Shown piece by piece: positions 9,541-53,448 of a stretch of 64,000 nucleotides of DNA. The stretch is from Planctomycetota bacterium. GTDB lineage: Bacteria > Planctomycetota > UBA8108 > UBA1146 > JAJFFE01. The first letter of the stretch is position 1. Every line of letters begins with the position of its first letter. The translations under genes were made by a program, and so were the position numbers. Where the stretch lies: NCBI GenBank assembly GCA_039028735.1, contig JBCCHQ010000001.1, positions 4,585 through 68,584 of the forward strand. The letters are read 5' to 3'. The notes beneath the pieces are model-generated. The model saw only the letters and a program-made list of their open reading frames with translations. It ran no database searches and was not told the origin of the DNA.

Positions 9541-12500
9541 CTAGGGACAGGCACCGTTGTTGGTGCAACCGAGAGGCACTCCAGTCGAATCGATGCCGCA
9601 CTGCGGGAACGGCGGAGGCATCGATCCCCCGCCAAAGAGGAACGTCAACGCAGAGACCGCGTCGGCGATGTCCAAAGAGCCAGAGTCGTTGACGTCGTTG
9701 GCCTCGAGACACCTCGTAACTGACCCGTTGAAGAGATACGTCAAGATCGCGATCGGATCGGCAACGTTGACCGTGCCGTCGATGTTGGCATCACCCCGGA
9801 TGAACAGAGTGCCCAAGGAAACGGTCACCGGCGCAGTCGCTCCACCAACATTCAAGTTCGGACTCATATCACGGGCGAGCGCGATGTACGTACACGTCGC
9901 GCTTCCAGGAAGGCCCGTGTCGACATAGTAAGGACTCTGCTGCCAGCCGCTATCATTGCCTGGGCCGCTGGTGCATTGGAACGAGTACTCGACTGCGCTC
10001 GGGTCCGACGCCGTGACCGCACGCATTTCGAACGAGTTGCCGCCCAACGCTGTCGGCGCCAGATCCCATTGCAACGGGTTTGGCGTGGGTGGGACCACAT
10101 CGGAATCTCCTTGGATGGGTCGCTGTACCCGCCCCGCCGCATACAGACCAAGCACTTCTCCGGGTGCCAAAGCCCGCGACCAAATGGCCACCTCATCGAT
10201 CGCGCCTCCAAAATCGCGATTCCCGAAGCCAGGATCGCGCCCGATCACAAGATCCGTGTCGAACGCTTCGGGCAGGTGAGTGGCACCGCGCACGACCGAC
10301 GTCCCGTTGCGATAGATCGTCGCCTGTGTCGGTTCGATCACGAGCGCGACATGACACCACTCTCCGTCCGGGATCTCCAAACCCGAGTCCCATCCCCATT
10401 GCCCACCGTCCCAGTGATATCGCAATTCATGGTGGCTCCCGAGATTGAGCCCCGTGGTCGTCGATCCCCCACGCCAGAACACGATCCCGTTCGTACCCGT
10501 CTGGGCACCATCCCTGCGCACCCACGCAGAAATCGTCAACGTGTTCGTGTTCAACACGAACGGGTTCGTTTCGACCATGTCGTCGATCCCGTCGAGATCC
10601 ACGCCCCCCGCCACCTGTCCCGCAACGAAAACGGGCCCGTTCATCAAGAGTCCATGGCGCAGTGGCGGTGGCGATTGATCGAGAACTAGCGTGCCGATCG
10701 TGTCCGCAACGTCGAAAGTATAGTGGACGAGCAATCCCTGCTCGTAGCCGTCGCTGCCGGTCGTGAAAGTCCACGGCTCTCCGTCCAGCACGGTACCGTC
10801 CCCCAGGACCGTGTCGACCTGCCACGTGTAGGTCGTTTGCGCCGGCAGCAACGGCATCGGATGCAGTGCATCGGCTCCGTGACGGCCACGGTACTCCGGC
10901 GACGTACGCGTTGCTGCAGCGACCGTCGCCGCGTCGGTCCCAAAGTAGACGTCATGCTGCGCAACGGTGAAACCAGGCGACCACGACAACACCGGGTGCC
11001 GCGGGGCGCTGTTGTCGAGCTGCTGCGGTGCCGGTGCATCGGCAGCTCCTCCGGCCGCTACTTGCGCCACTTGCGCCGCTGTCATCGAGTAAGAATAGAT
11101 GCGCACATCATCGACTGCACCACCAAAGAAGCGCGTACTGTTACTCGAGTCTTGCCCGATCCGCAGCGTGCCGTCGAAGGCTTCCACAGCATGAGCCGTC
11201 GAGTTCATCGCCACCTGCATCGGCGCTCCCGGTCCCGGCTGCATGTAGATGCGGCCGGCGTTCGGCGTCACAACGAGAGCAACGAACGTCCACTGTGCAT
11301 CGGGGAGCGCCAACCCCGAGTTCCAGGACCACTGCCCACCGTCCCAGTGATAACGCAGTTCATTGCCTGTACCGAGATTCAGACCTGCCACCGTCGACCC
11401 ACCACGACAGAATACGAGACCGGCCCACTGGTTCTGCGGACCTGACCGCCGTACCCACGCAGTGATGGTGACACGGTTGGTATTCAAGTTCGGCGCCGAC
11501 ACCTCCACGACATCGTCGACACCGTCGAGTTGCAGACCGCCACCGTAGACAGCGGCGACGCTGTCCGTTGCAAAGTCCACGCCACCTACCAAGGTGCCTG
11601 GTCCGCTGGCGACCGTCTCGTTTGCAGCGATACTGCCTGTAGTCTCATCGAGGCGCCAATGACCTGCGAGCTGTTGCCGCTGCACGTTCACGGCCACGCG
11701 CGCGGTGCTCATCAACACGCCGTCGCTGATCGTGTAGTCAAAGGAGTCGTTGCCAGCGAACCCAGTCGTGGGAGGCGTATAGATCACCTGATCGAAACCA
11801 CCAGTGCCGGTACCCGCAGAGATAACGACAGTCCCTCCCTTGGCGGATGTTGCATCGACAGCAGATACCAGAATCGGATCGCAGTTGCCGTCATGATCGT
11901 TGTCGAGTACGTCGATCGCAAATCCCACACCGCTGACGATCTGCATCTCATCGAGAAACAGCTCGTCCAACTTCGCAAAAGGCGGCAGCGCCGTTGGGTG
12001 CGCAGGCAGACTGTCCAGGCAAGTGCGCGACGCCATGTGCGCACGCTTCACATCCAGCGTACGCGGACCGATGCTGAGACATGCGCCGCACATGTTGTTG
12101 CACGGCGAGGTGTCCAAGCAATGCCCAGCCCCCCAGTTGTGGCCGACTTCGTGACCGATGATACCCGCCGAGTCGAGGCTCCAGCCGTACATCGAATTCG
12201 TACAAACGACCCCAACCCAGGCCAAGCCGCCATATCCAGATAGGTTGGACTTGTTCGTCATCAAGTGGCCAACGTCCCGCGTGATCGCCGTCTGGTTCGC
12301 ATTCCATTCGGCGCGGAACTGATTCAACAAATCGCCGCCACTGATGTCTGAGTAGAACGCAACGCTGCGGACAACAACACCTGTTAGAAGGTACGTGACC
12401 ATCAAGTCGCGGTTGTAGTAGAAGTCCACATCGTTGAGCAGCGCCTCCACGCGATCGGTCGTCTGCAGCACGGTGCCGCCTTGTTGCGTGAAGTATTCGA

Positions 12501-13098
12501 AGTCGCAGTCGAAAGCGATCTCGCAGCGCGTCATGCCGCACAGGTTTGGCGCGACGCCGCCGAACGGCTGCGCACCCGATCCCTGCACTGCGTTCGTCGT
12601 CGCCGCCGCGACCCCGCACTGAAACTGAACTCGACCGGGCGTGAAGACCACGTGCTGCCCGCGTGGTGCTGTGGCGATGAAACGGCGCGCTGGCTCGATC
12701 CGCACCGTCGCCACGGAATCTGCGTGCACTGCCGCCCGCAGGCCATGATCACTGAAACTCGCAACGACCACAGCGTCCGGCAGGTGCGTGACGATTCCGC
12801 GATACGTGCGCGGCGCCGGCAGCGGCATCGCGACAGTCTGGCCCCCCGCCCCGTATACGGATGCCTGCAGCCCCGCAGCTCGCATCGAATAGCGAGTCAA
12901 CTGTAGCTCGTAGGCGCTGCCACGCATCGGCACCGAGACTCTGACCTTGTCTGCTTCAGCAGGAAGCTGCAACTGCACTGTTTGGTAACTGCGTGTGCCC
13001 CACTCCGTTTCGAGACCATCGGCAATCGGGTCAGCCGCACGGACGTGCGATGCGACGAGCAGAAGACTGAGAAGAAACAGTAGGCGGAGACAGGTCAC
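9541..13098 (-). CDS. Large secreted multidomain metzincin metalloprotease with two LamG (concanavalin-like) domains and a C-terminal Cys-containing dockerin-like module
   Basis: The track starts at TTG 13152; GTG 13098 with a GAGGAAG RBS is preferred. There is a signal peptide. HEVGHNWGAGHC is the HExxHxxGxxH zinc site. A cadherin/Big-like segment is present. The two LamG_3 repeats each end in ...GGAIDxV.IY/W...A..V. The tail is RGDANIDGTVN...ACP-stop. Confidence 0.8.
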   Translation of the reverse strand: MTCLRLLFLLSLLLVASHVRAADPIADGLETEWGTRSYQTVQLQLPAEADKVRVSVPMRGSAYELQLTRYSMRAAGLQASVYGAGGQTVAMPLPAPRTYRGIVTHLPDAVVVASFSDHGLRAAVHADSVATVRIEPARRFIATAPRGQHVVFTPGRVQFQCGVAAATTNAVQGSGAQPFGGVAPNLCGMTRCEIAFDCDFEYFTQQGGTVLQTTDRVEALLNDVDFYYNRDLMVTYLLTGVVVRSVAFYSDISGGDLLNQFRAEWNANQTAITRDVGHLMTNKSNLSGYGGLAWVGVVCTNSMYGWSLDSAGIIGHEVGHNWGAGHCLDTSPCNNMCGACLSIGPRTLDVKRAHMASRTCLDSLPAHPTALPPFAKLDELFLDEMQIVSGVGFAIDVLDNDHDGNCDPILVSAVDATSAKGGTVVISAGTGTGGFDQVIYTPPTTGFAGNDSFDYTISDGVLMSTARVAVNVQRQQLAGHWRLDETTGSIAANETVASGPGTLVGGVDFATDSVAAVYGGGLQLDGVDDVVEVSAPNLNTNRVTITAWVRRSGPQNQWAGLVFCRGGSTVAGLNLGTGNELRYHWDGGQWSWNSGLALPDAQWTFVALVVTPNAGRIYMQPGPGAPMQVAMNSTAHAVEAFDGTLRIGQDSSNSTRFFGGAVDDVRIYSYSMTAAQVAQVAAGGAADAPAPQQLDNSAPRHPVLSWSPGFTVAQHDVYFGTDAATVAAATRTSPEYRGRHGADALHPMPLLPAQTTYTWQVDTVLGDGTVLDGEPWTFTTGSDGYEQGLLVHYTFDVADTIGTLVLDQSPPPLRHGLLMNGPVFVAGQVAGGVDLDGIDDMVETNPFVLNTNTLTISAWVRRDGAQTGTNGIVFWRGGSTTTGLNLGSHHELRYHWDGGQWGWDSGLEIPDGEWCHVALVIEPTQATIYRNGTSVVRGATHLPEAFDTDLVIGRDPGFGNRDFGGAIDEVAIWSRALAPGEVLGLYAAGRVQRPIQGDSDVVPPTPNPLQWDLAPTALGGNSFEMRAVTASDPSAVEYSFQCTSGPGNDSGWQQSPYYVDTGLPGSATCTYIALARDMSPNLNVGGATAPVTVSLGTLFIRGDANIDGTVNVADPIAILTYLFNGSVTRCLEANDVNDSGSLDIADAVSALTFLFGGGSMPPPFPQCGIDSTGVPLGCTNNGACP

Positions 13099-18982: not shown

Positions 18983-21568
18983 ATGACACACTCACCCGAT
19001 ACCTTTACCGCCCGAACCCTGCTCGAGAACTCGACCTGGCTCAGTAGCCTGGCCCATCGGCTCGTAAAGGACGAACAACGTGCCGATGACATCATGCAAG
19101 AGGCTTGGCTCGCTCTGATTGAGAAGCCGCCGCGCGACACGGACACCCCTCGGGCGTGGCTCGCAACCGTGGCACGGCGCCTCGCCAACAAGGGATTTCG
19201 CAGCGAAGCTAGAAGACTCGAACGAGAGCAGAAGGCGGCCCGCTCCGAGGCCACCGTCCCCAGCGACATCGTAGAGCGTGCCGAGATCCATCAGCACCTC
19301 GTCGACGCAGTCTTGGCACTGTCAGAGCCATACCGCAGCACGCTCCTCGAGCACTACTTCGATGAGCGCAGCGCGGCTGAGATCGCCAGTCGCCGCAGAC
19401 AGCCCGCAGCGACGGTACGTTCGCAGATCGCCCGCGGCCTCGAGTTGCTCAGAGATCGTCTCGACGGACTGCACGACGGCGACCGCCGTGCATGGTGCTT
19501 CAGTCTCTTGCCACTCGCCGTCATCGGAGCAACGGGTGTCGCGGGAACGGCCGTCGAAGTGCAAGAGCCGATACCGGTCTTGCAACGCCCGTCGGTCTGG
19601 CTGACGACTGCCGCCGGCGTCGCAGCACTGATCTTCGGCTGGACCCTGCTATCTCCAAACGATGGCGCGCGCCCGCAACAGCAAGCCAAAGGCGGCTCAG
19701 ACACGACCGTTCACGCGCCGCCGGCTGACGCCGATGTGGACGGCGGCGGTGGGATGGCTCCGATCGACGACAGCGACTCGGTCGTCGGTGTAGTCGTCGA
19801 TGCAGTCGTCGCGCCCGCCGACAGTTCAGTATCGCCGTCATTGCCCGACGCAGCCACGGCGACCGTACCAGGAGCCCATGAGGCACAAGGAGTCGTCCTC
19901 GACGTACACGGCCATCCGGTCGCCGGCATCGACATCTATCTTGATCAGCGGGCGGGACAAGGCGATCCACGCGCTACCGCCGCAGCCCCGCGACCGAACC
20001 AACGGATCCTTGCCACGACTGACCAAGACGGCATCTTCGAAGTACGCAGTAGGAAGCTGACCAGCTACATGTATCTGCTCGCCGAGAGTGCCGACTATAC
20101 GACACTACGCCGCGGGTGGTTCCAGGACAAACCCGAGGCCGAGATCCTGATCGTCGTCGGTCAGCGAGCGGCGCTGTCGGGTACCGTCCACAACGAAGAG
20201 GGGCTACCTCTGGCTGCAGCCATCGAAGTCGACGCACCGCACGCCCAACTGATCGATTTTCCGGAGTCGCTCGAGAACACCGGTCCCATGACCATCGCAA
20301 CCAGCGCTGACAGCGAAGGCAACTTTACCCTGCGTAGCTATCCTGCCTTCGTCGGCGCCAACCTCAGCATCAAACACGCCGGCTACAAACCGCACTGGGT
20401 GCAGATTGCAGCGATCGACAGCGATTCGATCGACGTCGTGCTGGAGCGCGCAGAACGCCCAGCGAAGAAGCTGGTCCTAGGTGTCGTGCTGCTGGCCGAT
20501 GGCTCCCCCGCCACCGCAGCCAGTATCCACTTTGGGAACAACAAGACGACCGTCGACGAGGACGGTAGCTTCGAGTTCCTTCCGCGCGGCATGATCAACG
20601 ACGCAACCCCCCTCGTGGCCATCATTCCCGAGCGCGCACCGGTAATCCTGCAGAACTTCGGAAAGACTTGGAAACAGGGGAGCGCCGCCGACCCACTCGA
20701 GATCACTGCAGGTGCAGAACCGCTGGCGATCGAGGGCGTAGTCCTGGGTAGCAACGGCGAGCCAGCAGCGGGGTGGGTAGTTCGACTGGCCGATGCAACC
20801 GAGATCAGCATAGGCCACTACCCGGCGACCTACGCCGAAGGACTCGCCAGTGGCCGTCACTCGAATCTCGACATCTACACCGACGTCAACGGATCGTTTC
20901 AGATTGCGGGTTTGATCGATCGCAGCTATCGAATCTTCGCGTATCAAGAGGGCACGCTGCTGTCGATTCGTTCTGAACCCATTGCCGCCGGCACCAACGA
21001 CGCCGTCCTACAGTTGCCCGACGACGCCGTACTACCGCCGCAGCGTGGGCGTGTTGTATCGCGGCGTGGACGGCCCCTCGCAAACGCCCGAGTCACACCG
21101 ACACTCACGACGAACAGCGGTGACACGGGCAGCGTTTGGATCAGTGGCACGAGTGTCACAACCGACAACAATGGCTACTTTTCGCTGACAGACTGTCCGC
21201 GGACTGAAGTCATGATCGCGGTCAGCGGCGCCGGCATCATGCCGACCAAAGTGGAGCTCGACCGCAGCGGCGGTGTCTTCGAGATAGAGGTGCCCGAGCG
21301 TTGCCGCTTCCGGGTCGAAGCAGATCACCTGCCCAACGTCCCCGACGATGGACAGATGCTCGCGGCCGACGGCACCGTTCTGAACGTCTATCGCTTCGTG
21401 GCAGGAGGCAACTCCTCAAGTAATCGGATGACGATCGTCGAGGGACGCACGCCGATCCTCGCCGTCAGCGAGGACGCCCGCACGCTGGTGCTGAGTCGCG
21501 GCGGCAAAGAGGTTGCACGCTTGTCGATCGATCTGAATCCAGACGTCGTGTCCGACCTACGCCCCTGA
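18983..21568 (+). CDS. ECF sigma-70 factor fused to two TM helices and a large extracytoplasmic C-terminal region (carboxypeptidase-regulatory/Ig-like repeats)
   Basis: ATG with a GAAGGGAG RBS. Sigma region 2 is DDIMQEAWLALIE. Region 4 is SEPYRSTLLEHYFDERSAAEIA...VRSQIARGLELLRDRL. The TM segments are WCFSLLPLAVIGATGVAGTAV and VWLTTAAGVAALIFGWTLL. About 600 aa with GVVLDVHGHPVAGIDIYL-type beta-sandwich repeats follow. Confidence 0.75.
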   Translation: MTHSPDTFTARTLLENSTWLSSLAHRLVKDEQRADDIMQEAWLALIEKPPRDTDTPRAWLATVARRLANKGFRSEARRLEREQKAARSEATVPSDIVERAEIHQHLVDAVLALSEPYRSTLLEHYFDERSAAEIASRRRQPAATVRSQIARGLELLRDRLDGLHDGDRRAWCFSLLPLAVIGATGVAGTAVEVQEPIPVLQRPSVWLTTAAGVAALIFGWTLLSPNDGARPQQQAKGGSDTTVHAPPADADVDGGGGMAPIDDSDSVVGVVVDAVVAPADSSVSPSLPDAATATVPGAHEAQGVVLDVHGHPVAGIDIYLDQRAGQGDPRATAAAPRPNQRILATTDQDGIFEVRSRKLTSYMYLLAESADYTTLRRGWFQDKPEAEILIVVGQRAALSGTVHNEEGLPLAAAIEVDAPHAQLIDFPESLENTGPMTIATSADSEGNFTLRSYPAFVGANLSIKHAGYKPHWVQIAAIDSDSIDVVLERAERPAKKLVLGVVLLADGSPATAASIHFGNNKTTVDEDGSFEFLPRGMINDATPLVAIIPERAPVILQNFGKTWKQGSAADPLEITAGAEPLAIEGVVLGSNGEPAAGWVVRLADATEISIGHYPATYAEGLASGRHSNLDIYTDVNGSFQIAGLIDRSYRIFAYQEGTLLSIRSEPIAAGTNDAVLQLPDDAVLPPQRGRVVSRRGRPLANARVTPTLTTNSGDTGSVWISGTSVTTDNNGYFSLTDCPRTEVMIAVSGAGIMPTKVELDRSGGVFEIEVPERCRFRVEADHLPNVPDDGQMLAADGTVLNVYRFVAGGNSSSNRMTIVEGRTPILAVSEDARTLVLSRGGKEVARLSIDLNPDVVSDLRP

Positions 21569-22293: not shown

Positions 22294-25200
22294 TCATGGG
22301 CACGGCGAGCTACTACACGTGAGGGTGTCTGCTGTCGGATCGACCGCGCACAAACCATGCGGAGCTGGCGGAGAGGCGCCACCGGAGAACAACGCCGACA
22401 ACTTGTACACAGCGTCGCCAATATTGTTCTGTCCGTCATCGTTGGCGTCACACGCGTCGGCACACGTAGGCGTCGTGCCGCTAGCGAACAAGAACGTTAG
22501 CAAGAACACCGGATCGCCAATGTTGAACGTACTGTCGCCGTTGCAGTCGCCACGATCGAAGCTCGGCTGTGCGGGCCCGCACTCATCGGGAACACCGTTA
22601 CCGTCGCCGTCCAGGGAGTACCCATTCGCGATGTCGCAAGAGTCGAGCACGCCGTTGCTGTTGCAGTCGAACTGCGCTCCCACAGCCAACTCGCAAGCAT
22701 CGAGGATGCCGTTGCCATTGCAATCATTGCCGGCCAACTGACAAACATCGGGCACGCTGTCGTTGTTGCAGTCGGTCATTACACCGGTTGCGAAGTCGCA
22801 CGAATCAGGAATACCATTGCTGTTGCAGTCTGCCTCCAGTGCGACCTGACTCGTGTTGCGGTGGATCGCGACGCCGCTCCCTGAGAACGCGCTGGCCAAG
22901 GCAATGTCGATACGACCATCAGCGTCGTAGTCTGCAGCGTCCAACCGCGAGTAGCTTACCGAACCGCCGACGTATGGCTCTGGAACAAACGCGCCCGCAC
23001 CTTGGTTCAGCATGACGCCGACCGTGGATCCAGCTAGATCGGGGCGGCCATCGCTGTCGAAGTCGCCGACTACCAGCTCTACCGGAGCGGCACTCCCTGG
23101 CAAGAGCACCGACGTGAAAGCACCGCCACCGTCGTTGCTAAGGAGTGCGACTGCAGTGCTCCCACCGGTGGCAATGTCGTAGTCACCGTCAAGATCCGCA
23201 TCGATAGCGACCAGCGTTTCTACGGGCTGTCCAACCGCAGTGATCTGAGGTGCTCCAAACACACCGCCTCCTTGGTTGAAGAACGTTCGCACCTCGGAAG
23301 AGCGCCCGACGCAAAGGTCAACAAGGCTATCGCCGTCGAAATCCTCTGCGATAACCCACCGTGGGATCGAGCCAGTCGCGTAGTCGACTCGTGTGAAAGA
23401 AGATCCAGCACCATCATTGAGCAGCACCGAAACGTTGGCATGCCAGAAGTTCGCGGTCACAAGATCCAGTGCACCGTCGCCATCGAAGTCCCCGGCCGCC
23501 ATCGACCTGGGTGTGCTCCCCACCGTCGTCCCAGATCCGAGACTGAAGACACCTGTACCATCGTTCAAGAGCAGGACGACTGTCGATGAGTAGCCGCCAG
23601 CGACATCGATATCTCCGTCGCCGTCAAAGTCACCGGCAGCCAGTGTGTCGATACCGTTGACAAGATGAATCACGTTGATTGTCGACACGAAGGTGCCGTC
23701 ACCGTTGTTCAACGCAACGTGTAACGGGACAGTCTGGTTGGTAGCCATCACTACGTCGAGATCCCCGTCGCCATCGAAGTCTGCCGTCGCAATGTCGTTG
23801 GCTAGCCCCGCCGGCTGGATCGGAATCAAGTGATGAAACTCGAACTGCAGCAAGCGAGACTCGACATCGCAGTCATCAGGGCGGCCGTTTCCGTTGCAGT
23901 CTTGACTGCTGCCGCTACTGAGATCGGTCGCGTCGTGCACGCCGTTCTGGTTGCAGTCTGCCAGCAGGATCGCCTCGACCGTGTCGATCATGCCGTGGCC
24001 TACTTGTGACGTTGAGCCCGCTACGGGCACTGCGGTCGTCGTCAACACAGCTCGCAGCTGCGCAGGCGTAATGCCAGGTATGGCTTCGATGATCAGAGCA
24101 GCAGCCCCGGACGCCGCCGGCGCCGCCATGCTCGTGCCCCACTGCACGTAGTAGTCGGCTGCACCAGTACCGTAGTTGCTGTCGTTGTCGATCAAGAAGT
24201 CGGGATCCGGGAAGCCAGCAAAGGTGCCAGAGTCCTTGCACGAGATCGTCACACTGCCGGGCGCCACGAGATCGGGTTTCGCTGCACCGTCGATGCGTGG
24301 CCCTTGACCGCTAAACGGTGCTAACGTGCCGACGACCATCCAGTCGAACCAACGCGGAAGACCATCGGAACGCGTCCACGAAGTTCGCTGTGTCCAACAG
24401 CCGATGGTGATGGCGTCGTCAGCGGTTCCCGGGTGGTTCAGGGTATACTGCGGGTCTGGCACGTCGAACGTAGCCAGACTCCAGGTACTGGGATTGAAGA
24501 CGTGAACCAGCGGTGTTTGCCCGGAAAGCGCGGCGTTCGTGATCGTGAAGCTGTAGGTTCTCGACGCACCGACCGCGAGCGGCGTGATATTGAGAAAGTA
24601 CTGCTGTGCCTCAGTGCCACGGCTACTGGTACCGGTCCAGTGCACCCCCGCTGCGGGAACGGTGCCGGTCAATGTTCCCAGCGTCTCGCCGGGGAGCAGG
24701 TTCGTACAGATCAACGTCATGTTGCTGTCGCTAACGCCATCTTGCCAGATGAGCCGCAGATCTTCAGACGGTGTGTACGGGAAACCGCTCGTGTTGTTGA
24801 TCGTCAAAGTAAACGCTGCTGATGTCGAGTTTGGTGCGACCGTCATTGAGGCGTGCTTCGCGACGTTGCCATCATTGCCAGCGGCGACAAAGCATGTCAT
24901 CCCGCTCGCAGTCGCGGCATCGATCGCCTGGCACACGAGAGACGAGCCGTCCATGTACGTGTGGACGCCACCGTAGCTCAAGTTGTAGATGTGGCAGCCA
25001 ACGAACAGCGCGCGGTTGATCGACTCGATGATGTCGGTATCAGACGCAAATGCTGTGACGTCGTCACCGATCTTGTAGAAGTGCAAATCCGCACCGGGGG
25101 CAACACCGGTGTGAATCCCCGAAGACACGACACCACTTCCGAGCACAGTACCGGTGACATGGGTACCGTGGGCCATCACCGTATTGGTCACGGTCGTAGA

Positions 25201-25902
25201 CCAGGCACCCGGGCCCGCGCCCGCGTGCGTCCCCGTTGTCATGTCGAAAGCTTCGGTCGGCGTTGGGAAGTCCAAGTGCGTGAGATCGATCCCACTATCG
25301 GCAACAGCGACCTTGACCCCAGTACCATCGCGCGGCAGCGTTTCGATGCCCAGAGACACATCCCACGCCCGCATCATCTTTCGGGCTTCGAAATTCAAAG
25401 GTGCACTCCACTGCTCGGCCGACACCACAGAAACTACGAGCGGGTGCGCTTCCAGGTAGTTCAGCCGGCTGTAAGAAACCGTGGCGAGATAAAACCCGAA
25501 CGGATGCTTGCCGACGACAGGCGGAACCCACCCGGTCGGATGCAACTGCACGCCAGCCGTGGTCATCGCGAGCCACTCGGGGCCAAGCAGCGGTCGCGTC
25601 ATGTAGATTCCGACTTGCTCGGTCGTCGGATCTCCACGGTGAACGGCTGCAACCGGCGCCGAAGCTTGCGGCGTGCTCGCGAAGTTCCACGCGTTCCGGT
25701 CGTTGCGAGTCGCCTCGGCGCGGCCACCCTCGGCGCCATCCAGGGGCGCAGCCTCGACTGCGTTCTTGATCCGCTGGTGCCCATAGATGACGTCGCAAAT
25801 CTTGCCGTCAGCCGACGCCTCAGTCACAAACAGCACGATCCCCACGAACGCGACGGCGCGCGCCCAATTTCGCCGGGACTGAATCGTCAAAGAGTTCTTC
25901 AT
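22294..25902 (-). CDS. Secreted subtilisin-like serine protease (S8) with FG-GAP/VCBS repeats and a C-terminal Cys-containing dockerin-like module
   Basis: ATG 25902 with a GGAGGAG RBS and a signal peptide. The catalytic triad context is VAVADSGID, HGTHVTGTV, GTSMAAPAASG. Multiple DFDGDGDLDV/GDFDGDG FG-GAP loops are present. The tail is RGDCNGDSTFN...SPCP-stop. Confidence 0.85.
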   Translation of the reverse strand: MKNSLTIQSRRNWARAVAFVGIVLFVTEASADGKICDVIYGHQRIKNAVEAAPLDGAEGGRAEATRNDRNAWNFASTPQASAPVAAVHRGDPTTEQVGIYMTRPLLGPEWLAMTTAGVQLHPTGWVPPVVGKHPFGFYLATVSYSRLNYLEAHPLVVSVVSAEQWSAPLNFEARKMMRAWDVSLGIETLPRDGTGVKVAVADSGIDLTHLDFPTPTEAFDMTTGTHAGAGPGAWSTTVTNTVMAHGTHVTGTVLGSGVVSSGIHTGVAPGADLHFYKIGDDVTAFASDTDIIESINRALFVGCHIYNLSYGGVHTYMDGSSLVCQAIDAATASGMTCFVAAGNDGNVAKHASMTVAPNSTSAAFTLTINNTSGFPYTPSEDLRLIWQDGVSDSNMTLICTNLLPGETLGTLTGTVPAAGVHWTGTSSRGTEAQQYFLNITPLAVGASRTYSFTITNAALSGQTPLVHVFNPSTWSLATFDVPDPQYTLNHPGTADDAITIGCWTQRTSWTRSDGLPRWFDWMVVGTLAPFSGQGPRIDGAAKPDLVAPGSVTISCKDSGTFAGFPDPDFLIDNDSNYGTGAADYYVQWGTSMAAPAASGAAALIIEAIPGITPAQLRAVLTTTAVPVAGSTSQVGHGMIDTVEAILLADCNQNGVHDATDLSSGSSQDCNGNGRPDDCDVESRLLQFEFHHLIPIQPAGLANDIATADFDGDGDLDVVMATNQTVPLHVALNNGDGTFVSTINVIHLVNGIDTLAAGDFDGDGDIDVAGGYSSTVVLLLNDGTGVFSLGSGTTVGSTPRSMAAGDFDGDGALDLVTANFWHANVSVLLNDGAGSSFTRVDYATGSIPRWVIAEDFDGDSLVDLCVGRSSEVRTFFNQGGGVFGAPQITAVGQPVETLVAIDADLDGDYDIATGGSTAVALLSNDGGGAFTSVLLPGSAAPVELVVGDFDSDGRPDLAGSTVGVMLNQGAGAFVPEPYVGGSVSYSRLDAADYDADGRIDIALASAFSGSGVAIHRNTSQVALEADCNSNGIPDSCDFATGVMTDCNNDSVPDVCQLAGNDCNGNGILDACELAVGAQFDCNSNGVLDSCDIANGYSLDGDGNGVPDECGPAQPSFDRGDCNGDSTFNIGDPVFLLTFLFASGTTPTCADACDANDDGQNNIGDAVYKLSALFSGGASPPAPHGLCAVDPTADTLTCSSSPCP

Positions 25903-26158
25903 GGTGCTCCTCCGTTTCGGAACGCACAACAGCTCAGGAGCAAGCCCACCATTGCTCTATCCTGCATAGAGGCCCCGGGGGCGTCTCTGACAAACTTGTG
26001 CGAGAAAACGAGAAGACAGGGCGCCTTCGCCGAGCGCGAGAACACAAGGCGCGCGAAATCAGTGACTTAGCCCGACGGCAGCAAAGCTCCACACGACGTC
26101 GGTCCACGCTGATCCAGCGATTCTGCCCCCCTTCGGAGCACCTCGGGGGGTACCATGC

Positions 26159-26758
26159 GTGGTGCCGATGACTAGATACACAACGCATATCTCCTTGCTG
26201 CAGCGCGTGTCCGCCAGCACCGATCCGGCGGCCTGGCGAGAGTTCTGCGACCGCTACGGCCTCCTGATCCGCAGCTTCGCCCGCCGCCGGGCACTGCAGC
26301 CCGCCGACTGCGACGAAGTCGTGCAAGATGTCCTCACAGCTCTGACGCAAGCCATGCCGGGGTTCGAGTACGACCCAACGCGCGGCAAGTTTCGTGGCTA
26401 CTTGAAAACAATCACGCTGCGCGAGATCCAGAAACGCTACCGACAACATCGCGAGTTGCCGCTCGCTACCGATGGCGAAAGCCAGGGCGTCGAGCTGGAA
26501 CGCGACGACGCTGCACTCGATCAGACTTGGGAAGACGAGTGGCGCCAATATCATCTGCGGCAGGCCATGCGTAGCATCGAGGTGGAGTTCTCGGAGGCAG
26601 ACCGCGAGGCGTTCGATCTCTACGCTGTCCACGGCACACCGGCCCAGGAAACTGCAACGCGTCTCCAACTGAGCGTCGATCAGGTGTACCAGGCAAAGTC
26701 GCGAATTCTGAAACGCATCGAAAGCCTGATCGAGCGCCAAGTCGAGGACGAAGGATGA
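26159..26758 (+). CDS. ECF-type RNA polymerase sigma factor
   Basis: Sigma-70 region 2 is DEVVQDVLTAL. Region 4 is TATRLQLSVDQVYQAKSRILKRIE. Start is GTG 26159 or ATG 26168. The stop overlaps the downstream kinase start (ATGA). Confidence 0.8.
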   Translation: MVPMTRYTTHISLLQRVSASTDPAAWREFCDRYGLLIRSFARRRALQPADCDEVVQDVLTALTQAMPGFEYDPTRGKFRGYLKTITLREIQKRYRQHRELPLATDGESQGVELERDDAALDQTWEDEWRQYHLRQAMRSIEVEFSEADREAFDLYAVHGTPAQETATRLQLSVDQVYQAKSRILKRIESLIERQVEDEG

Positions 26759-28590
26759 GTAACGATTGGTTTCACGGCGATGAGCTCCTCGGCGAGCTGC
26801 GCAAGGCACCTCGCAGTGATGCGGCCCCACGAGTTCCCGGATACACGCACCTGGAAGAAATCGGCCGCGGCGGCCAAGGGGTTGTCTTCGAGGCGCTCCA
26901 ACAATCCACGCAACGAACCGTTGCGATCAAGGTGTTGCACGAAGATGTGACTCGAGTCGTCGAGCGGAAAACTCGTTTCGAACGCGAGATCGAACTGGTA
27001 TCGACACTAGAGCACCCCTGCATCGTGCGTGTCTACGACAGCGGTGTCACTGAAGACGGCCAACTCTACTACGTCATGGAGCGCCTCGTAGGTGTCCCCC
27101 TCGACCAGCACATCAGCGATACGCAGCCGACACAGGCGTGGATCGTACAACTGCTGATTCGAATTGCCGACGCAGTCGGCTTCGCCCATCAACGTGGGGT
27201 CATGCATCGAGACCTCAAGCCAGCCAACATCATCGTCTCTTCCGATGGAGCACCTCACATCCTCGACTTCGGCGCCGCCAAGCGTGCGCTTCCGGTAGAA
27301 GACGGCGAGGGATTCGCAACATTGACTCCACGCGAAGACGTCACGGTGGCCGGTGATTTCCTCGGCACGCTGGCGTTTGCGTCGCCGGAACAAGTCTCCG
27401 GGGATCCAGCGCGTGTAGACATCCGTACAGACGTCTACGCCTTGGGGCTGATTCTGTACCATTGCCTGGCTGGTCGGTTGCCGTACGATGTCTCGGGCGC
27501 TGTCGCCACCGTCGTGCAGTCGATCGTGGACGCACGGCCGCAGCCGTTGAAGGCTCACTCCGAACTGCAACTCATCGTCAGTAAGGCGCTCGACAAGGAT
27601 CCAGAGCGGCGCTATTCGTCTGCCCATACGTTCGCGCGCGACTTGGAGCGTTTCCTTCGCGGCGATCCAATCGAAGCTCGCGGCGACTCGACTTGGTACG
27701 TCTTGCGCAAGACGGTTCAGAAGCACAAGGTCCCGTTCGGCTTGGCTGCGCTCCTCACGGTGTCCGCCGTGTTCTTTGCCGTCTCTATGTTCATCGCGTA
27801 TCGCAACGTCGCTCGTGAACAGAGCAAGACAAGCGACATCAAGATCTTCTGGGAAGACACGCTAGGGTCAGTGGCGCCCGCACGCCCCGGCGCAGCCATT
27901 ACCTTCGCCGACGTACTCAACGAAGCCGTGGCTTGGATCGAGATCACGACAGAAGGAGAACCTGAGATCGAAGCGTCCCTGCGTACGACCGTCGGCAACG
28001 GCTACCGCAACCTCGGGCGGTTCGACGAAGCCGAAGAGCAGCTGCAGCGGGGATTGGCGCTGCGGCGCGAGCTGTTTGGCCCGAATCACGCAGACTCGAT
28101 AGCGAGCTTCAACGCCATCGCTTTGCTCCGACAGAGCCAACAACGCTACGACGAAGCGGCCGCCATGTTCACTGCGGCCCTCGATGCTCGCATCGCACTA
28201 CTTGGTTCTGAACACCCCGCAGTGGCGCAGAGCTACCAGAACCTCGGGCGTGTGGCGTTCCAGCAACAGCGCCTCGACGAAGCGGAGGCGCTGTACCTGA
28301 AAGTACTTCAGCGGCGAATCGCGCTGTATGGGGCGAAACACCAGGGCGTGGCCATGGTGCAATTCGATCTCGCTGAAGTTGCACGAGTTCGCGGTCGCCT
28401 GGAGGAGAGCCTCTCGCTCCATTCCACGGCTCTTGCGACGCGCAGGGAACGGCTCTCGCCACCGCACCCCGATCTCGCACGCTCGCTACGCGCTCTAGGA
28501 GAGATACTCACACTGCTGGGACGAACGGCCGAGGCGCAAGCGGCGCTCGCTGAGGCCGACGACATCGGACGCAGCCTGCGCGGAAACTAG
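26755..28590 (+). CDS. Ser/Thr protein kinase with a TM segment and C-terminal TPR repeats
   Basis: Kinase motifs are EIGRGGQGVV, AIKVL, HRDLKPANII, DFGAAK and SPEQ. The TM segment is VPFGLAALLTVSAVFFAVSMFIAY. TPR-like repeats follow. It is translationally coupled to the ECF sigma gene. Confidence 0.85.
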   Translation: MSNDWFHGDELLGELRKAPRSDAAPRVPGYTHLEEIGRGGQGVVFEALQQSTQRTVAIKVLHEDVTRVVERKTRFEREIELVSTLEHPCIVRVYDSGVTEDGQLYYVMERLVGVPLDQHISDTQPTQAWIVQLLIRIADAVGFAHQRGVMHRDLKPANIIVSSDGAPHILDFGAAKRALPVEDGEGFATLTPREDVTVAGDFLGTLAFASPEQVSGDPARVDIRTDVYALGLILYHCLAGRLPYDVSGAVATVVQSIVDARPQPLKAHSELQLIVSKALDKDPERRYSSAHTFARDLERFLRGDPIEARGDSTWYVLRKTVQKHKVPFGLAALLTVSAVFFAVSMFIAYRNVAREQSKTSDIKIFWEDTLGSVAPARPGAAITFADVLNEAVAWIEITTEGEPEIEASLRTTVGNGYRNLGRFDEAEEQLQRGLALRRELFGPNHADSIASFNAIALLRQSQQRYDEAAAMFTAALDARIALLGSEHPAVAQSYQNLGRVAFQQQRLDEAEALYLKVLQRRIALYGAKHQGVAMVQFDLAEVARVRGRLEESLSLHSTALATRRERLSPPHPDLARSLRALGEILTLLGRTAEAQAALAEADDIGRSLRGN

Positions 28591-32392: not shown

Positions 32393-32502
32393 CGCTGCAG
32401 CTCGGCTACGAGCCACGCGCGCTAGTTGGAGTGCAACTGTCGTCACTCCTCGGTAGAATCTCGCACTTCGAAGGACAGTCCAATACAAGAGGAGTAACAC
32501 CG

Positions 32503-32853
32503 ATGGTCAAGCGCGTCGACTGGTACTACCACCGCAACGGCTGAACGAGCTGCACTCGATCTCAGGAGTTCCTGAGCGAAGCTGACGTAACGATCAAAGA
32601 ACAGGTCGACGCCAAGAAGGAGGTCCGTGACCGCGCGGGGGCACTAGAGGTCCTCAGCAAGGCGAATCGGATCATCACGTGTCGTGGCAAGAAGATCGTC
32701 GAGTTCGACATGAAGAACGAACCGCCCGCACAAGACGAGCTGTTGAAGACCGCTCTCGGCCCGACGGGGAACCTGCGAGCACCAACCATCGCTTGCGGCA
32801 AGACGGTGATCGTTGGCTTCCATCCCGATGCGTACGGAGAAGTGCTCAGCTAG
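32503..32853 (+). CDS. ArsC/Spx/YffB-family thioredoxin-fold protein with an in-frame TGA (codon 14) at the redox Cys position: candidate selenoprotein (U-T-S-C motif)
   Basis: ATG 32503 with a GGAG RBS. The frame runs MVKRVDWYYHRNG-TGA-TSCTRSQEFL... and continues to TAG 32851-53 (116 aa total). The tail LRAPTIACGKTVIVGFHPDAYGEVL is ArsC/Spx-like (cf. Spx [25 protein letters not shown]). The TGA is at 32542-32544. Confidence 0.6.
32556..32579 (+). promoter_or_regulatory. SECIS-like hairpin 12 nt downstream of the in-frame UGA
   Basis: The sequence is TCGatCTCAGG-AGTT-CCTGAGCGA. It has a 6-bp core stem plus a 3-bp outer stem. The apical loop is AGUU. Confidence 0.4.
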
Positions 32854-32887
32854 AGCACACTCACTGCGAGACGCGCTACCATTTGGT

Positions 32888-48716: not shown

Positions 48717-51700
48717 CTAGCTGGTCACGACGAGGTCGCGGACAGCGGCCAAAGACAGCGTCTTGCCGGCTGCGAGATCGCTGCCCCAGCTGTCGTTGCC
48801 CACCTTCGCCCGGACCTCCGAAACCCAGGCAACGTCCGTCGGCTCAGGTTCCGTGCCGCCAGTGCGCTCTGCAATCGTGGTCGCCAGACCGTATACACGC
48901 ACCGCAGCCGCAACGGCGTTGCTGACGGCTAGGAAGCGCGCCGCGCACCACAACAAATCAGCGTGCAGCGTCGTTTCCGAGAGTTGTTCGGCGGCTTCGA
49001 GCCCCTCAGTCAGCATCGTGGTCACGGCCAAGCGATCCTTCTGATCGATGGCGACTCGAGCGATGTTCGTCAACGAGCGCAGAACACCTTCTTGGTCGCC
49101 GAGTTCACGCTGTAGCGCGACGCTCTCTTCGTGAAACTGACGTGCTTCGTCGAGGCGACCCGCCAAGTGCGCGACCAACCCTAGATTGCTCAGCAGGTTG
49201 CGCTCCGTTCTGCGGTTGCCCACGGACCGACTGATGTCGAGCGCTTCCCGATACAACGTGGCCGCCGCCGCAAAGTCTTCGCGACCATAGGCAACGCTGC
49301 CGCAACTCTGCAAACAGACAGCAATGCCCTGCTGGTCTCCAAGCTCACGGAAGATGCCAAGAGCTTCATCGTAGTAGTCGCCGGCAGCGTCGTTGTCTCC
49401 TTGCGACAGCGCGACAAGCCCCAGGTTACTGAGGGCGACTCCCGTCTTCTTGCGATCAGAAAGCTGACGGGCAATGTCGAGGCTCTCCTCCAGCCGGACT
49501 CGCGCTCCGGAGAGGTCGCCTTCGCGACGATCGACTACAGCGACGTCGTTGAGGGCGCTCGCGATCCCCGACGGGTCACCAAGCTCGCGCCGAATGCGTA
49601 GCGCCTCGTCGAAAGCCAAGCGCGATGTCGACAAGTCGCCCTGCATCATCGCCAACTTCCCCAAGCACGAAAGAGCCGATGCTCGAGGGTTGTTGCCGCT
49701 CGTAGCAGCCGATAGCTCCAACGCATCGCTTGTGAACGAGCGCCCTTCGGTCCAATGGCCGCGCACCAACCAGTAGTGCCCCAACAATGCGACCAGCTGC
49801 AGCGCGTTGCCGCCCCCGTCTGCAGAATCTGCCAAGAAGCGCTGCAGCGCCGCACGAGTGTTGCCACGCTCGAGCTCGAGCAAGTCGAACCACTGCGCCT
49901 GTTCCGGTCCGGCCAGTTTCTCGTCCGCCTGCCCTGCAAGCTGCAGAAAATAGGCGCCATGGCGCTCGACCATTGCCGCGCTCTCTCCACACTCGTCGAG
50001 CTTCTCCCACGCATACTGGCGAATCGTCTCGAGCGATCGGTAGCGCGTCAATTCGTGCTCGCCGTCGGCAACGGCCGTGACTTCGACCAGTGACTTGTCG
50101 ACGAGGTTCGCCAGAAGATCGAGCACTTCGTAGTCTTCGATCTCGTCGTCGGAACAAACCTGCTCTGCCGAATCCAACGTCCAGCCACCGACAAACACAG
50201 CAAAGCGCCGCAGCAGCGCCTGCTCTTGTTCATCGAGTTGGTCGTAGCTCCAGTCGATGGCTGCGCGCAGTGTTTTCTGGTGTGGAAGAGCCATCTTGTT
50301 GCCGCCTCGCAGCAGCCGAAAGCGATCGGCCAAGCGCTCGGCAATATCGTTGACGGACAACACTCGAATGCGCGCTGCAGCGAGCTCTAGCGCCAGCGGG
50401 ATTCCATCAAGGCTCTGGCACACCTGCGCTACGGCGGCCGCATTCTGTTCGGTCAGCTCGAACGACGACTTCAGGGCGCGAGCACGTTCGACGAACAACG
50501 CGACGGCTTCGTTGTCCGCAAGCTCGCCCACGGGGGGCAAATGATCGAGGTCTGGCAACTCCATCGGTTCGACGTGATAGATCTGTTCGCCAGGAACGTT
50601 GAAGGCCTCGCGACTGCTCGCAATGATTTTCAGATCCGGGTACGTCAGCATCAACTGACTGACGATCTTCGAAATCGGTTCGATCATGTGTTCGCAATTG
50701 TCGAACACGAAGAGCAGTTGCTTCCCCTTCAGGTAGTCCATCAAAGTCTCGACTACACTGCGGCCGGGGTCCTCCTTGAGGCCAAGCACGCTCGCAATCG
50801 TACGCGGTACCAGCCCCTCGTCTTGCAGCGACGCAAACTCGACCAACCAGACGCCGTCCGGAAACGCGCCCAGATTGCGGCGCGCAACCTCCAGGCCAAG
50901 GCGCGTCTTTCCCGAACCCCCGGTGCCAGTCAGCGTCAACAAACAGGTGTGGGTCAAACACTCGAGGGTCTGCTCCAGCTGTCGCCGACGGCCAACGAAC
51001 GTCGTCAACTGTGCCGGAAGGTTGTTCGGGCCGGCGTCGCCAGTTCCCCCGGCTTCGGCATCTCGATAACGCGTCAAGACCTCGTCGAGCGTTCGCCGCA
51101 CGTCGGCAATCGACGCAGTGCGTTGCTCAATGTCGGTGGCGAGGCAGCCTTGTAGCAGCGACCGGATCGCCTTCGGGGTCGTTTCAGGGAGGCGTCCCCA
51201 ATCGATCGATGCCCGTTGGGTCGCAGAGACGCACTCGGCCAATGTACGAAACGTCAAAGCTGCTGACCCGGTAAGCATCTCGAACAGTACGCAACCGAAT
51301 GCCCAGATATCGACGCCTTCGCCCAACGGCCCGCCGCTGAGTTGTTCGGGACTCATGTAGCCAGGAGTTCCCGCCATCGACGGGTTGGCATCGTCAAGAC
51401 CAAGGTCTTCGGCGGCCTGGCCACGCGCGGTTGCGATTCCGAAGTCGAGGATCTTGGCAGTACCATCGCTAGCCAGCATCACGTTGCCGGGCTTCAGGTC
51501 GCGGTGAATCACACCGCGCGTATGCGCTGCCTGCAGCCCGCCCGCAATCTGCTTGGCGATACCGAGCGCGTCCGCGAACGACACTTCTTCTTTGAGTCGA
51601 TCTTGCAGCGACTGCCCCTGCAGATGCTCCATCGTGAAGTAGCGCAGCCCACCCTCTCCCTCGAGGCTGAAGATGGTCGCGATGTTGGGGTGATTCAACG

Positions 51701-52187
51701 CAGCGAGCAGCTGCGCTTCTCGTTCGAACGCCTCCAACGCTGCCGTGTTCGCGACGACCTCGTCGGGGAGCACCTTCAACGCGATCCGCCGCTTCAAACG
51801 TGGATCCTCCGCGAGATAGACGACCCCCATGCCGCCGCGGCCGAGCTCGGCAACGATCTGATACGGACCGATCGCGGTCGGAGGTGCGCCGTCGGAGCTG
51901 GCCGTGCCTACCGGGTGCGGGGCATTACTACCGTCGAATGCGACGGTCGCATCGTCTCCGATTGGTGCAGCAGACGGGGCGCCGGTTGCAATCGTTTCCG
52001 ACAGGTCCACGGTCGCACCATCGGCCAGCGGGGCTTGACCAGCACTCGGAGGCTCGGTGGAAATCGTCTCGGACAGATCCACCGTTGCATCATCAGTAAT
52101 GGGAGTGTCCGGCGGCGGCGGCTTGCCGGCCCCGGGGGGCGCATTCCCGGGGGGCCCATTCCCGGGTGTTGGTTCGTCTGGTCTCAT
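48717..52187 (-). CDS. Ser/Thr protein kinase fused to an NB-ARC/AAA-type P-loop NTPase and TPR repeats (STAND-like signalling protein)
   Basis: ATG 52187 with an AGGAG RBS. The N-terminal Pro-rich region carries tandem (D/G)ATVDLSETI repeats. Kinase motifs are ELGRGGMGVVY, HRDLKPGNVM, DFGIA. The P-loop is TGTGGSGKTRL. The C-terminal ~450 aa are TPR. Confidence 0.8.
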   Translation of the reverse strand: MRPDEPTPGNGPPGNAPPGAGKPPPPDTPITDDATVDLSETISTEPPSAGQAPLADGATVDLSETIATGAPSAAPIGDDATVAFDGSNAPHPVGTASSDGAPPTAIGPYQIVAELGRGGMGVVYLAEDPRLKRRIALKVLPDEVVANTAALEAFEREAQLLAALNHPNIATIFSLEGEGGLRYFTMEHLQGQSLQDRLKEEVSFADALGIAKQIAGGLQAAHTRGVIHRDLKPGNVMLASDGTAKILDFGIATARGQAAEDLGLDDANPSMAGTPGYMSPEQLSGGPLGEGVDIWAFGCVLFEMLTGSAALTFRTLAECVSATQRASIDWGRLPETTPKAIRSLLQGCLATDIEQRTASIADVRRTLDEVLTRYRDAEAGGTGDAGPNNLPAQLTTFVGRRRQLEQTLECLTHTCLLTLTGTGGSGKTRLGLEVARRNLGAFPDGVWLVEFASLQDEGLVPRTIASVLGLKEDPGRSVVETLMDYLKGKQLLFVFDNCEHMIEPISKIVSQLMLTYPDLKIIASSREAFNVPGEQIYHVEPMELPDLDHLPPVGELADNEAVALFVERARALKSSFELTEQNAAAVAQVCQSLDGIPLALELAAARIRVLSVNDIAERLADRFRLLRGGNKMALPHQKTLRAAIDWSYDQLDEQEQALLRRFAVFVGGWTLDSAEQVCSDDEIEDYEVLDLLANLVDKSLVEVTAVADGEHELTRYRSLETIRQYAWEKLDECGESAAMVERHGAYFLQLAGQADEKLAGPEQAQWFDLLELERGNTRAALQRFLADSADGGGNALQLVALLGHYWLVRGHWTEGRSFTSDALELSAATSGNNPRASALSCLGKLAMMQGDLSTSRLAFDEALRIRRELGDPSGIASALNDVAVVDRREGDLSGARVRLEESLDIARQLSDRKKTGVALSNLGLVALSQGDNDAAGDYYDEALGIFRELGDQQGIAVCLQSCGSVAYGREDFAAAATLYREALDISRSVGNRRTERNLLSNLGLVAHLAGRLDEARQFHEESVALQRELGDQEGVLRSLTNIARVAIDQKDRLAVTTMLTEGLEAAEQLSETTLHADLLWCAARFLAVSNAVAAAVRVYGLATTIAERTGGTEPEPTDVAWVSEVRAKVGNDSWGSDLAAGKTLSLAAVRDLVVTS

Positions 52188-52866: not shown

Positions 52867-53448
52867 CTAGCGAGAGCCGGGCTCGAGCTCGGCGCGGAGA
52901 CGCTCTTCGCAGGCGGTCAACCCAGAGGCAACGATCCGGCCGCTCGGATTGACGAGATAGAACGTCGAGCCCCAGACCAAGCGCACGCCGTAAGCTTCGC
53001 AGTCTGCTGTGGCGTTGGCCAGCAACAAGAAGTTCAGGTCGCAATCGTCAGCAACCTTCTCGGCATCGCGACGGCTGCCGGCCGTGACACCGACAATCAT
53101 GAATCGCCGCCAGTCGTCGAACTCGGCTTGCACCTGCACGAGGTGCGGCATCTCCTCGATGCATGGCCCTCACGACGGCAGGAAGAAGACCAGCAACGTC
53201 CAACGGTTGCGCAGCGAGCCCGCATTATGGCCAAAACCAGTGCGATCGATACGAGGCTGCAAGACTTGTAGCTCTGGTGTGGGCGCGACCCATTGGCGCC
53301 CTTGCAGCGGCGGCGCGATCGATCCCTCGAGGTCAGAGTTGCTGAGGGCCAGGAACCCAGCGCGGACCGTGCCACAGCCGGAAGCGGTCACCAACAAGCC
53401 CGAGAGGAAAATGAAAAGCGCCAGCTGTCGTCGCATCGCTGCGTGCAT
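52867..53448 (-). CDS. TlpA/ResA-like thiol:disulfide oxidoreductase lipoprotein with an in-frame TGA at the first redox Cys: candidate selenoprotein (U-G-P-C motif)
   Basis: Track ORFs 53170..53553 and 52867..53151 are in the same frame and are separated only by TGA (53172-53170). Read-through gives WTLLVFFLPS-U-GPCIEEMPHLVQVQAEFDDWRRFMIVGV, which is a textbook TlpA pattern (cf. VLVNFWASWCGPCRAEMP). The C-terminal is STFYLVNPSGRIVA. Start ATG 53448 or 53436 precedes the lipobox-like TASGC. Confidence 0.6.
53135..53163 (-). promoter_or_regulatory. SECIS-like hairpin 8 nt downstream of the in-frame UGA (minus strand)
   Basis: Read on the minus strand it is GCAuCGAGG-AGAUGCCGCA-CCUCGUGC. It has an 8-bp stem with a 1-nt bulge and a 10-nt loop. 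Confidence 0.35.

Follow-up and report, generated by a model that had tools for sequence, protein, structure and literature searches.

Spx of Bacillus subtilis (PDB 1z3e, 3gfk and 6gho) is a redox-sensing regulator that binds RNA polymerase, and the R773 arsenate reductase ArsC (PDB 1i9d) combines a C-x-x-S motif with an anion-binding triad formed by Arg60, Arg94 and Arg107. Related proteins containing selenocysteine (Sec) have also been described. A Sec-containing 'arsenate reductase' family (COG1393) was reported in 2005 from the Sargasso Sea on 14 sequences, all of them with a U-x-x-S motif (PMC1088965), and a 2006 table of 25 bacterial selenoprotein families includes an 'ArsC-like' family of two proteins from Deltaproteobacteria (PMC1794560). 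By their published descriptions, both families carry Sec in place of the N-terminal active-site Cys of an ArsC/COG1393-type thioredoxin-fold protein and a SECIS element (for selenocysteine insertion sequence) directly downstream, which is also the layout of the gene analyzed here, located at positions 32503-32853 of the + strand in a 64-kb stretch of DNA (hereafter, the window). The motif of the window protein, U-T-S-C, differs from the U-x-x-S of the Sargasso Sea family and follows instead the C-x-x-C of Spx. On the sequence evidence presented below, we put at about 0.9 the probability that the gene is intact and encodes a cytoplasmic selenoprotein of 116 residues, a member of the ArsC/Spx/YffB branch of the thioredoxin fold, with an in-frame UGA specifying Sec at residue 14.

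The frame opens with an ATG at 32503, which follows a Shine-Dalgarno-like AGGAG read from the sequence at 32490-32494 (+ strand) with an 8-nt spacer, and it extends over 116 codons, Sec14 included, to a TAG stop at 32851-32853, its only interruption being the TGA at 32542-32544. The 13 sense codons preceding the TGA encode MVKRVDWYYHRNG, and the frame continues after it for 102 codons (TSCTRSQEFLSEADVT...LRAPTIACGKTVIVGFHPDAYGEVLS). A first-pass annotation of this DNA had proposed this same arrangement, from the coordinates and ribosome-binding site at 32503 to the peptide, the 13 codons plus TGA and the 102-codon continuation, and all of it was reproduced in the sequence. The TGA corresponds to the first position of U-T-S-C, and the TGC codon at 32551-32553 encodes Cys17, the presumed resolving Cys of the U-x-x-C motif, which aligns with C13 of Spx. 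In the list of open reading frames (ORFs), the first in-frame start 3' of the TGA is found at 32710 and yields just 47 amino acids, so that the downstream half could not be made alone as a folded protein; the source assembly annotates only this 47-aa fragment at the locus. The protein lacks a signal peptide, since strand 1 already starts at residue 5.

With U read as C, the protein matches the curated NCBIfam model NF041106 ('ArsC_rel_Se_1', ArsC family (seleno)protein) at 135.6 bits (curated cutoff 85; E = 8.9e-40), with residues 5-111 aligned to the full length of the profile (1-107 of 107), whereas the next NCBIfam models, representing other Grx-like (seleno)protein families and Spx, score far under their own cutoffs. 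The window protein shares with NF041106 the U/C-x-x-C motif, the D-W-Y-Y-H-R of strand 1 and the signature G-P-T-G-N-L-R-A-P, and presents no material difference from it. Among solved structures, the family profile finds its best match in Spx (1z3e, E = 2.3e-9), with which it aligns end to end, followed by the ArsC-family proteins 2m46 and 3gkx and by YffB (1rw1). The full-length match to NF041106 and the end-to-end profile alignments with Spx, YffB and ArsC-family structures uphold the earlier proposal that the two halves flanking the TGA form one coherent ArsC/Spx/YffB thioredoxin-fold protein. All invariant family residues (C17, G62, G86, P87, G89, N90, L91, R92, A93, P94, V104 and G105) are retained in the window protein, and C17 is invariant in three family alignments. 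The codons of the invariant or nearly invariant signature G-P-T-G-N-L-R-A-P (residues 86-94) lie at 32758-32784 (+ strand); the signature maps to the loop ahead of the penultimate strand and, by analogy with the cis-Pro position of thioredoxin folds, may contribute to the active site. A structure model of a Cys homolog (P0001, 56% identical to the window protein) returned Spx structures among its top Foldseek matches, at a TM-score of only ~0.5, and contains a beta-hairpin at residues 56-69. At a single locus among those seen, from a Planctomycetales metagenome-assembled genome (MAG; CAZNFA010000044.1, ~2700-3044), the motif reads HRKG-U-V-S-S, with Ser replacing Cys17, and thus corresponds to the U-x-x-S of the 'arsenate reductase' selenoproteins from the Sargasso Sea.

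A search of 5.8 billion proteins identified 566 homologs. In the best 120 of these 566, the column of the TGA contains Cys in 80 and an annotated 'W' in 8, while the remaining 33 are protein calls that start just past it, many of them with 'M-x-C'. The full-length family match spans both sides of the TGA, and the Cys homologs place their Cys exactly at it, as the first-pass annotation had expected of a genuine Sec/Cys pair. Inspection of the underlying DNA revealed that one 'W' (locus L005) is a TGA translated with code 4, and that a shortened protein call at another locus (L001) conceals an upstream MVATADWYYHRKG-TGA-TSCTRSQEFL. The latter locus is syntenic with the window, its protein is 72% identical to the window protein, and it retains both the TGA and the hairpin described below, with synonymous differences. 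Closest identity was 72%, to Logan metagenome contigs, and at most 56% to any GTDB species representative. Relatives are present in at least 598 of the genomes scanned, one per GTDB species, and number at least 563 in Joint Genome Institute (JGI) metagenomes; the genome matches are mostly Planctomycetota MAGs from the Pirellulaceae, Planctomycetaceae, Phycisphaerae and Gemmatales, and members named after NF041106 by the Prokaryotic Genome Annotation Pipeline (PGAP) include proteins of Planctomyces sp. SH-PL14 and of a Gemmataceae MAG. This breadth, together with the existence of a dedicated NCBI naming model, overturns the earlier statement that ArsC-like selenoproteins are rare.

A census of the active-site codon over 158 related loci yielded TGA at 141, TGC at 16 and TGT at 1, so the Sec form strongly dominates the clade. 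Every one of the 127 unique Sec loci has an in-frame start codon (ATG, GTG or TTG) 9-24 codons 5' of the TGA with no intervening stop, and the most frequent distance from start to TGA is 13 codons, the same as in the window. Over the nine codons 5' of the TGA, codon positions 1, 2 and 3 have entropies of 0.54, 0.44 and 1.18 bits, respectively, a pattern indicating that this stretch evolves as translated sequence. These data bear directly on the possibility that the TGA is a true stop, either because the gene is a pseudogene or because sequencing or assembly introduced the TGA by mistake into a Cys-form gene, in which case no full-length protein would be made. Such a stop would account for the 47-aa fragment called in the source assembly, and it would sit well with a window devoid of Sec machinery. 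However, the identical TGA recurs at 141 of 158 loci that are independent and represent many species and samples, ruling out a sequencing error as well as a private pseudogene. The sequence is also present in SRA run SRR22824298. Furthermore, an independent assembly (L166), located by way of the neighboring APH gene, whose protein matched exactly, carries the same sequence, every invariant family residue is kept on both flanks of the TGA, and the upstream codons are under purifying selection. We therefore regard a true stop as extremely unlikely.

The presence of a SECIS-like stem-loop within the coding sequence is consistent with the Sec reading. In the window, this hairpin spans 32556-32579 (+ strand), over the codons S-Q-E-F-L-S, and consists of a lower stem (32556-58/32577-79), an AU bulge (32559-60), an upper stem CUCAGG/CCUGAG (32561-66/32571-76) and an apical AGUU loop (32567-70), for 6+3 bp in all. 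The whole hairpin lies 12-35 nt downstream, and its 6-bp upper stem begins at offset 19 from the U of the UGA. Published criteria for bacterial SECIS elements describe a stem-loop directly 3' of the UGA, within the coding sequence, whose apical loop is small and includes a G (PMC1088965), and the window hairpin conforms to them in its position and in its G-containing AGUU loop. The 60 nt from the UGA could be aligned without gaps over 77 Sec loci, where the commonest helix is C-G-C-A-R-G-A/U-C-U-U-G-C-G, with a GUU loop and columns 20-26 pairing with 30-36. Pairing on this helix holds in 85.7% of cells, compared to 30-66% after sliding of the 3' arm, and double-sided changes were observed in 26 cells, at four of the seven pairs, a count reached by none of 500 shuffles. 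A register one base shorter (CUCAGG/CCUGAG with an AGUU loop) is found in the window and in L001, L006 and L054.

Perfect hairpins, with 6 bp or more and a start 14-24 nt past the first base of the UGA, are present in 115 of 131 unique Sec sequences versus 3 of 15 Cys forms (Fisher p = 7.9e-8), and in the other 16 Sec sequences the stem at this site is bulged. Among the 115 perfect hairpins, the offset is 18-20 in 98, the loop measures 3-4 nt in 102, and it contains G in 112 and GU in 102. The first-pass annotation had reported a 6+3 bp hairpin at 32556-32579 at the distance typical of a bacterial SECIS, and the G-containing loop, the covariation and the scarcity of such hairpins in Cys forms all substantiate that observation. 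A subgroup of loci (L025, L035, L058, L059, L073, L077 and related loci) uses R-[AS]-D-x-F-L-E codons, resembling those of the Cys forms; it does not have the CGCARG/CUUGCG hairpin and forms, at the same distance from the UGA (+18 to +45 nt), a longer stem-loop of another type. The hairpin of this subgroup suggests that the SECIS may have been remodeled within the family.

A UGA decoded as something other than Sec, whether through a code reassigned to Trp or Gly or through near-cognate read-through with Cys or Trp, would explain why eight database homologs are annotated with 'W' at this position. The genetic code of the window does not accommodate a reassignment, because ORFs of 1,200-1,350 aa remain uninterrupted under code 11 and UGA terminates 20 of the 46 crude gene calls, indicating that the code is standard and UGA an ordinary stop. 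Moreover, the residue aligned to the TGA in homologs is Cys and never a genuine Trp or Gly codon, and a G-loop hairpin at fixed spacing that is specific to TGA forms constitutes a signature of SelB-type decoding, unlike leaky read-through. The probability of non-Sec decoding is, in our assessment, close to negligible.

The window contains a second gene with the signature of a Sec/Cys pair, on the - strand at 53448-52867, where the first-pass annotation had placed a further candidate. It encodes a redoxin of the TlpA/AhpC-TSA type with an S-U-G-P-C motif and passes the Pfam AhpC-TSA model at 36.1 bits (threshold 26). A lipoprotein-like N-terminus (LLVTASGC) precedes the stretch ...RWTLLVFFLPS-TGA-GPCIEEMPHL..., in which the TGA occupies 53170-53172, and the source assembly splits the gene into calls of 92 and 94 aa. 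Relatives were recovered by exhaustive HMMER search, a word-indexed search giving none, and most of the matches are calls of 80-100 aa that start right past the motif. The same Sec/Cys alternation is apparent, with a 159-aa relative (P0144) reading FFLPT-C-EG-C at the Sec site and a 45% identical relative (L167/L168) carrying an in-frame LLVFFKPL-TGA-GPCLVEMP in its DNA. Hairpins are found 3' of the UGA in both copies, those of the window and of L167/L168, and are not obviously homologous; the folding energy of the second-gene hairpin against shuffles (z -0.20) was not significant. A brute-force scan of the window for additional redox-motif ORFs interrupted by TGA was overwhelmed by spurious frames at 62% GC.

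The co-occurrence of two unrelated Sec/Cys-pair genes in 64 kb makes it likely, from sequence, that the host decodes Sec, a capacity documented in planctomycetes (PMC4807772). Selenoprotein loss is, nevertheless, frequent in bacteria (PMC1794560), and the gene could conceivably be a recently stranded relic, still intact in appearance, of a lineage that has lost Sec decoding. This scenario would have to account for two unrelated selenoprotein genes within the same 64 kb that are both intact, with frames conserved on either side of the TGA, and for a syntenic, 72%-identical relative that retains TGA and hairpin and differs by synonymous changes, and we consider it highly improbable.

Several results weigh against the selenoprotein reading and its assignment to this fold. 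No selA, selB, selD or tRNA-Sec gene was found within the 64-kb window, which contains no tRNA of any type. The single window sequence scores below the gathering threshold of Pfam PF03960 (ArsC; 18.8 bits, threshold 24) and, over its N-terminal 36 residues only, below that of PF00462 (Glutaredoxin; 21.0 bits, threshold 22.9). The folding energy of the window hairpin is not unusual with respect to shuffles (z = -0.87), nothing in the window matched Rfam at gathering thresholds, and RNAalifold returned no consensus structure on the 77-sequence, UGA-anchored alignment of mixed register. The stem also overlaps the conserved Q-E-F-L codons, so that RNA and protein constraints are partly confounded. 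Lastly, no conserved neighbor was identified over 80 genome loci, the clusters of flanking ORFs consisting of antisense shadow ORFs and lineage-local neighbors, and the neighborhood thus provides no hint of substrate or function.

Homology to the ArsC superfamily holds at the sequence level despite the sub-threshold Pfam score of the window protein, because many homologs carry a precomputed PF03960 match and the family profile matches ArsC, Spx and YffB structures. Likewise, the significance of the hairpin derives from the comparison with relatives and not from single-sequence energy, and pairs were counted on a stated helix instead of relying on RNAalifold because the family combines two registers one base apart with a second hairpin type. 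Neither the Q-E-F-L motif nor the hairpin is present in Cys forms, an argument for the RNA as the driver of codon choice.

Under the selenoprotein reading, the UGA at 32542-32544 would not be taken as a stop during translation. The stem-loop at 32556-32579, whose apical loop is small and contains G, would bring SelB-GTP-Sec-tRNA(Sec) to the ribosome, leading to the insertion of Sec at residue 14. In the resulting protein, Sec14 would cap helix 1 at its N-terminus, where C-x-x-C thioredoxin-fold enzymes have their attacking Cys, with Cys17 one helical turn on. The Sec14 selenolate could then attack an oxidized substrate, be it a disulfide, a mixed disulfide or an oxyanion adduct, and Cys17 would resolve the intermediate to yield a Sec14-Cys17 selenenylsulfide, which would be re-reduced by a thioredoxin- or glutaredoxin-type system. 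We infer that the protein is probably a selenol/thiol oxidoreductase that cycles via this selenenylsulfide.

Comparison with the characterized proteins of the branch places Spx closest by profile. In the profile alignment, C10-T-S-C13 of Spx falls on U14-T-S-C17 of the window protein and G-L-L-R-R-P, the counterpart of the family signature, on G-N-L-R-A-P, with Spx carrying Cys where the window protein would carry Sec. The window protein was not assigned to the Spx/MgsR regulators, given a TIGR01617 score of 21.8 bits against a cutoff of 75. Alignment with R773 ArsC, using a sequence identical to 1i9d, superimposes Sec14 on the catalytic Cys12, albeit weakly (hhalign probability 12.7%), and R773 ArsC is not among the PDB sequence matches of the family profile at E <= 1. 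This weak alignment stops before the region of ArsC Arg94 and Arg107; position 61 is R in the window protein and K in the consensus, and the only invariant Arg of the family past the active site is R92, which aligns to the R-R-P of Spx. An assignment as arsenate reductase was not adopted, since the profile match to R773 ArsC is weak and the Arg triad is not evidently conserved. YffB (PA3664, 1rw1) and the ArsC-family-related protein of Bacteroides (3gkx) share 17-24% identity with the window protein, are Cys proteins and do not have the G-P-T-G-N-L-R-A-P signature.

The gene stands by itself. It lies 110 nt 3' of a ThrE-family gene, with an APH-ThrE pair upstream, and converges on an RNase II/R (RNB) gene of the other strand, from which it is separated by 34 nt (32854-32887). 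The APH-ThrE-arsC-like order is common to the window and L001. In the latter, four extra genes, encoding a glyoxalase, a CDP-alcohol phosphatidyltransferase, a CTP transferase and an acyltransferase, are located between the selenoprotein gene and the RNB gene (10303-12938), in place of the 34 nt of the window. Antisense ORFs of 60-130 aa are found opposite the selenoprotein gene, at 32562-32823 (-) in the window and at equivalent positions in 16-18 relatives; they cluster across loci because the sense gene is conserved, and constitute an artifact for ORF-based annotation. Elsewhere, the window harbors three large Ser/Thr protein kinase-TPR fusion genes (26755-28590, 48717-52187 and 58709-61021), a gene for a fusion protein resembling sigma factors of the extracytoplasmic function (ECF) group (18983-21568) and one for an FG-GAP subtilase (22294-25929). 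This gene content, at 61.7% GC, and the distribution of homologs would fit a Planctomycetota-like genome.

Taken together, these results identify the window gene as a previously unannotated member of a curated and widespread selenoprotein family that is neither rare nor new. Standard gene callers break both Sec genes of the window at the UGA, implying that the selenoproteomes of uncultured, Planctomycetota-like bacteria are under-reported in the absence of models such as NF041106, and the compact, uniform SECIS of the family (stem of 6-8 bp, loop GUU or AGUU, start ~19 nt from the UGA) provides a convenient search pattern. Since Spx is its nearest characterized relative by profile and has a redox switch at the same place, the family could instead be a Sec-based redox sensor or regulator that binds a partner such as RNA polymerase and is not an enzyme; we deem this very unlikely, but, if true, it would be the first Sec-containing transcription regulator. 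In a milder version, this planctomycete-centered, Sec-dominant family would reduce a substrate outside those of the characterized ArsC, Spx and YffB proteins. The existence of such a family will not surprise a selenoprotein specialist, but it is a reasonable target for characterization.
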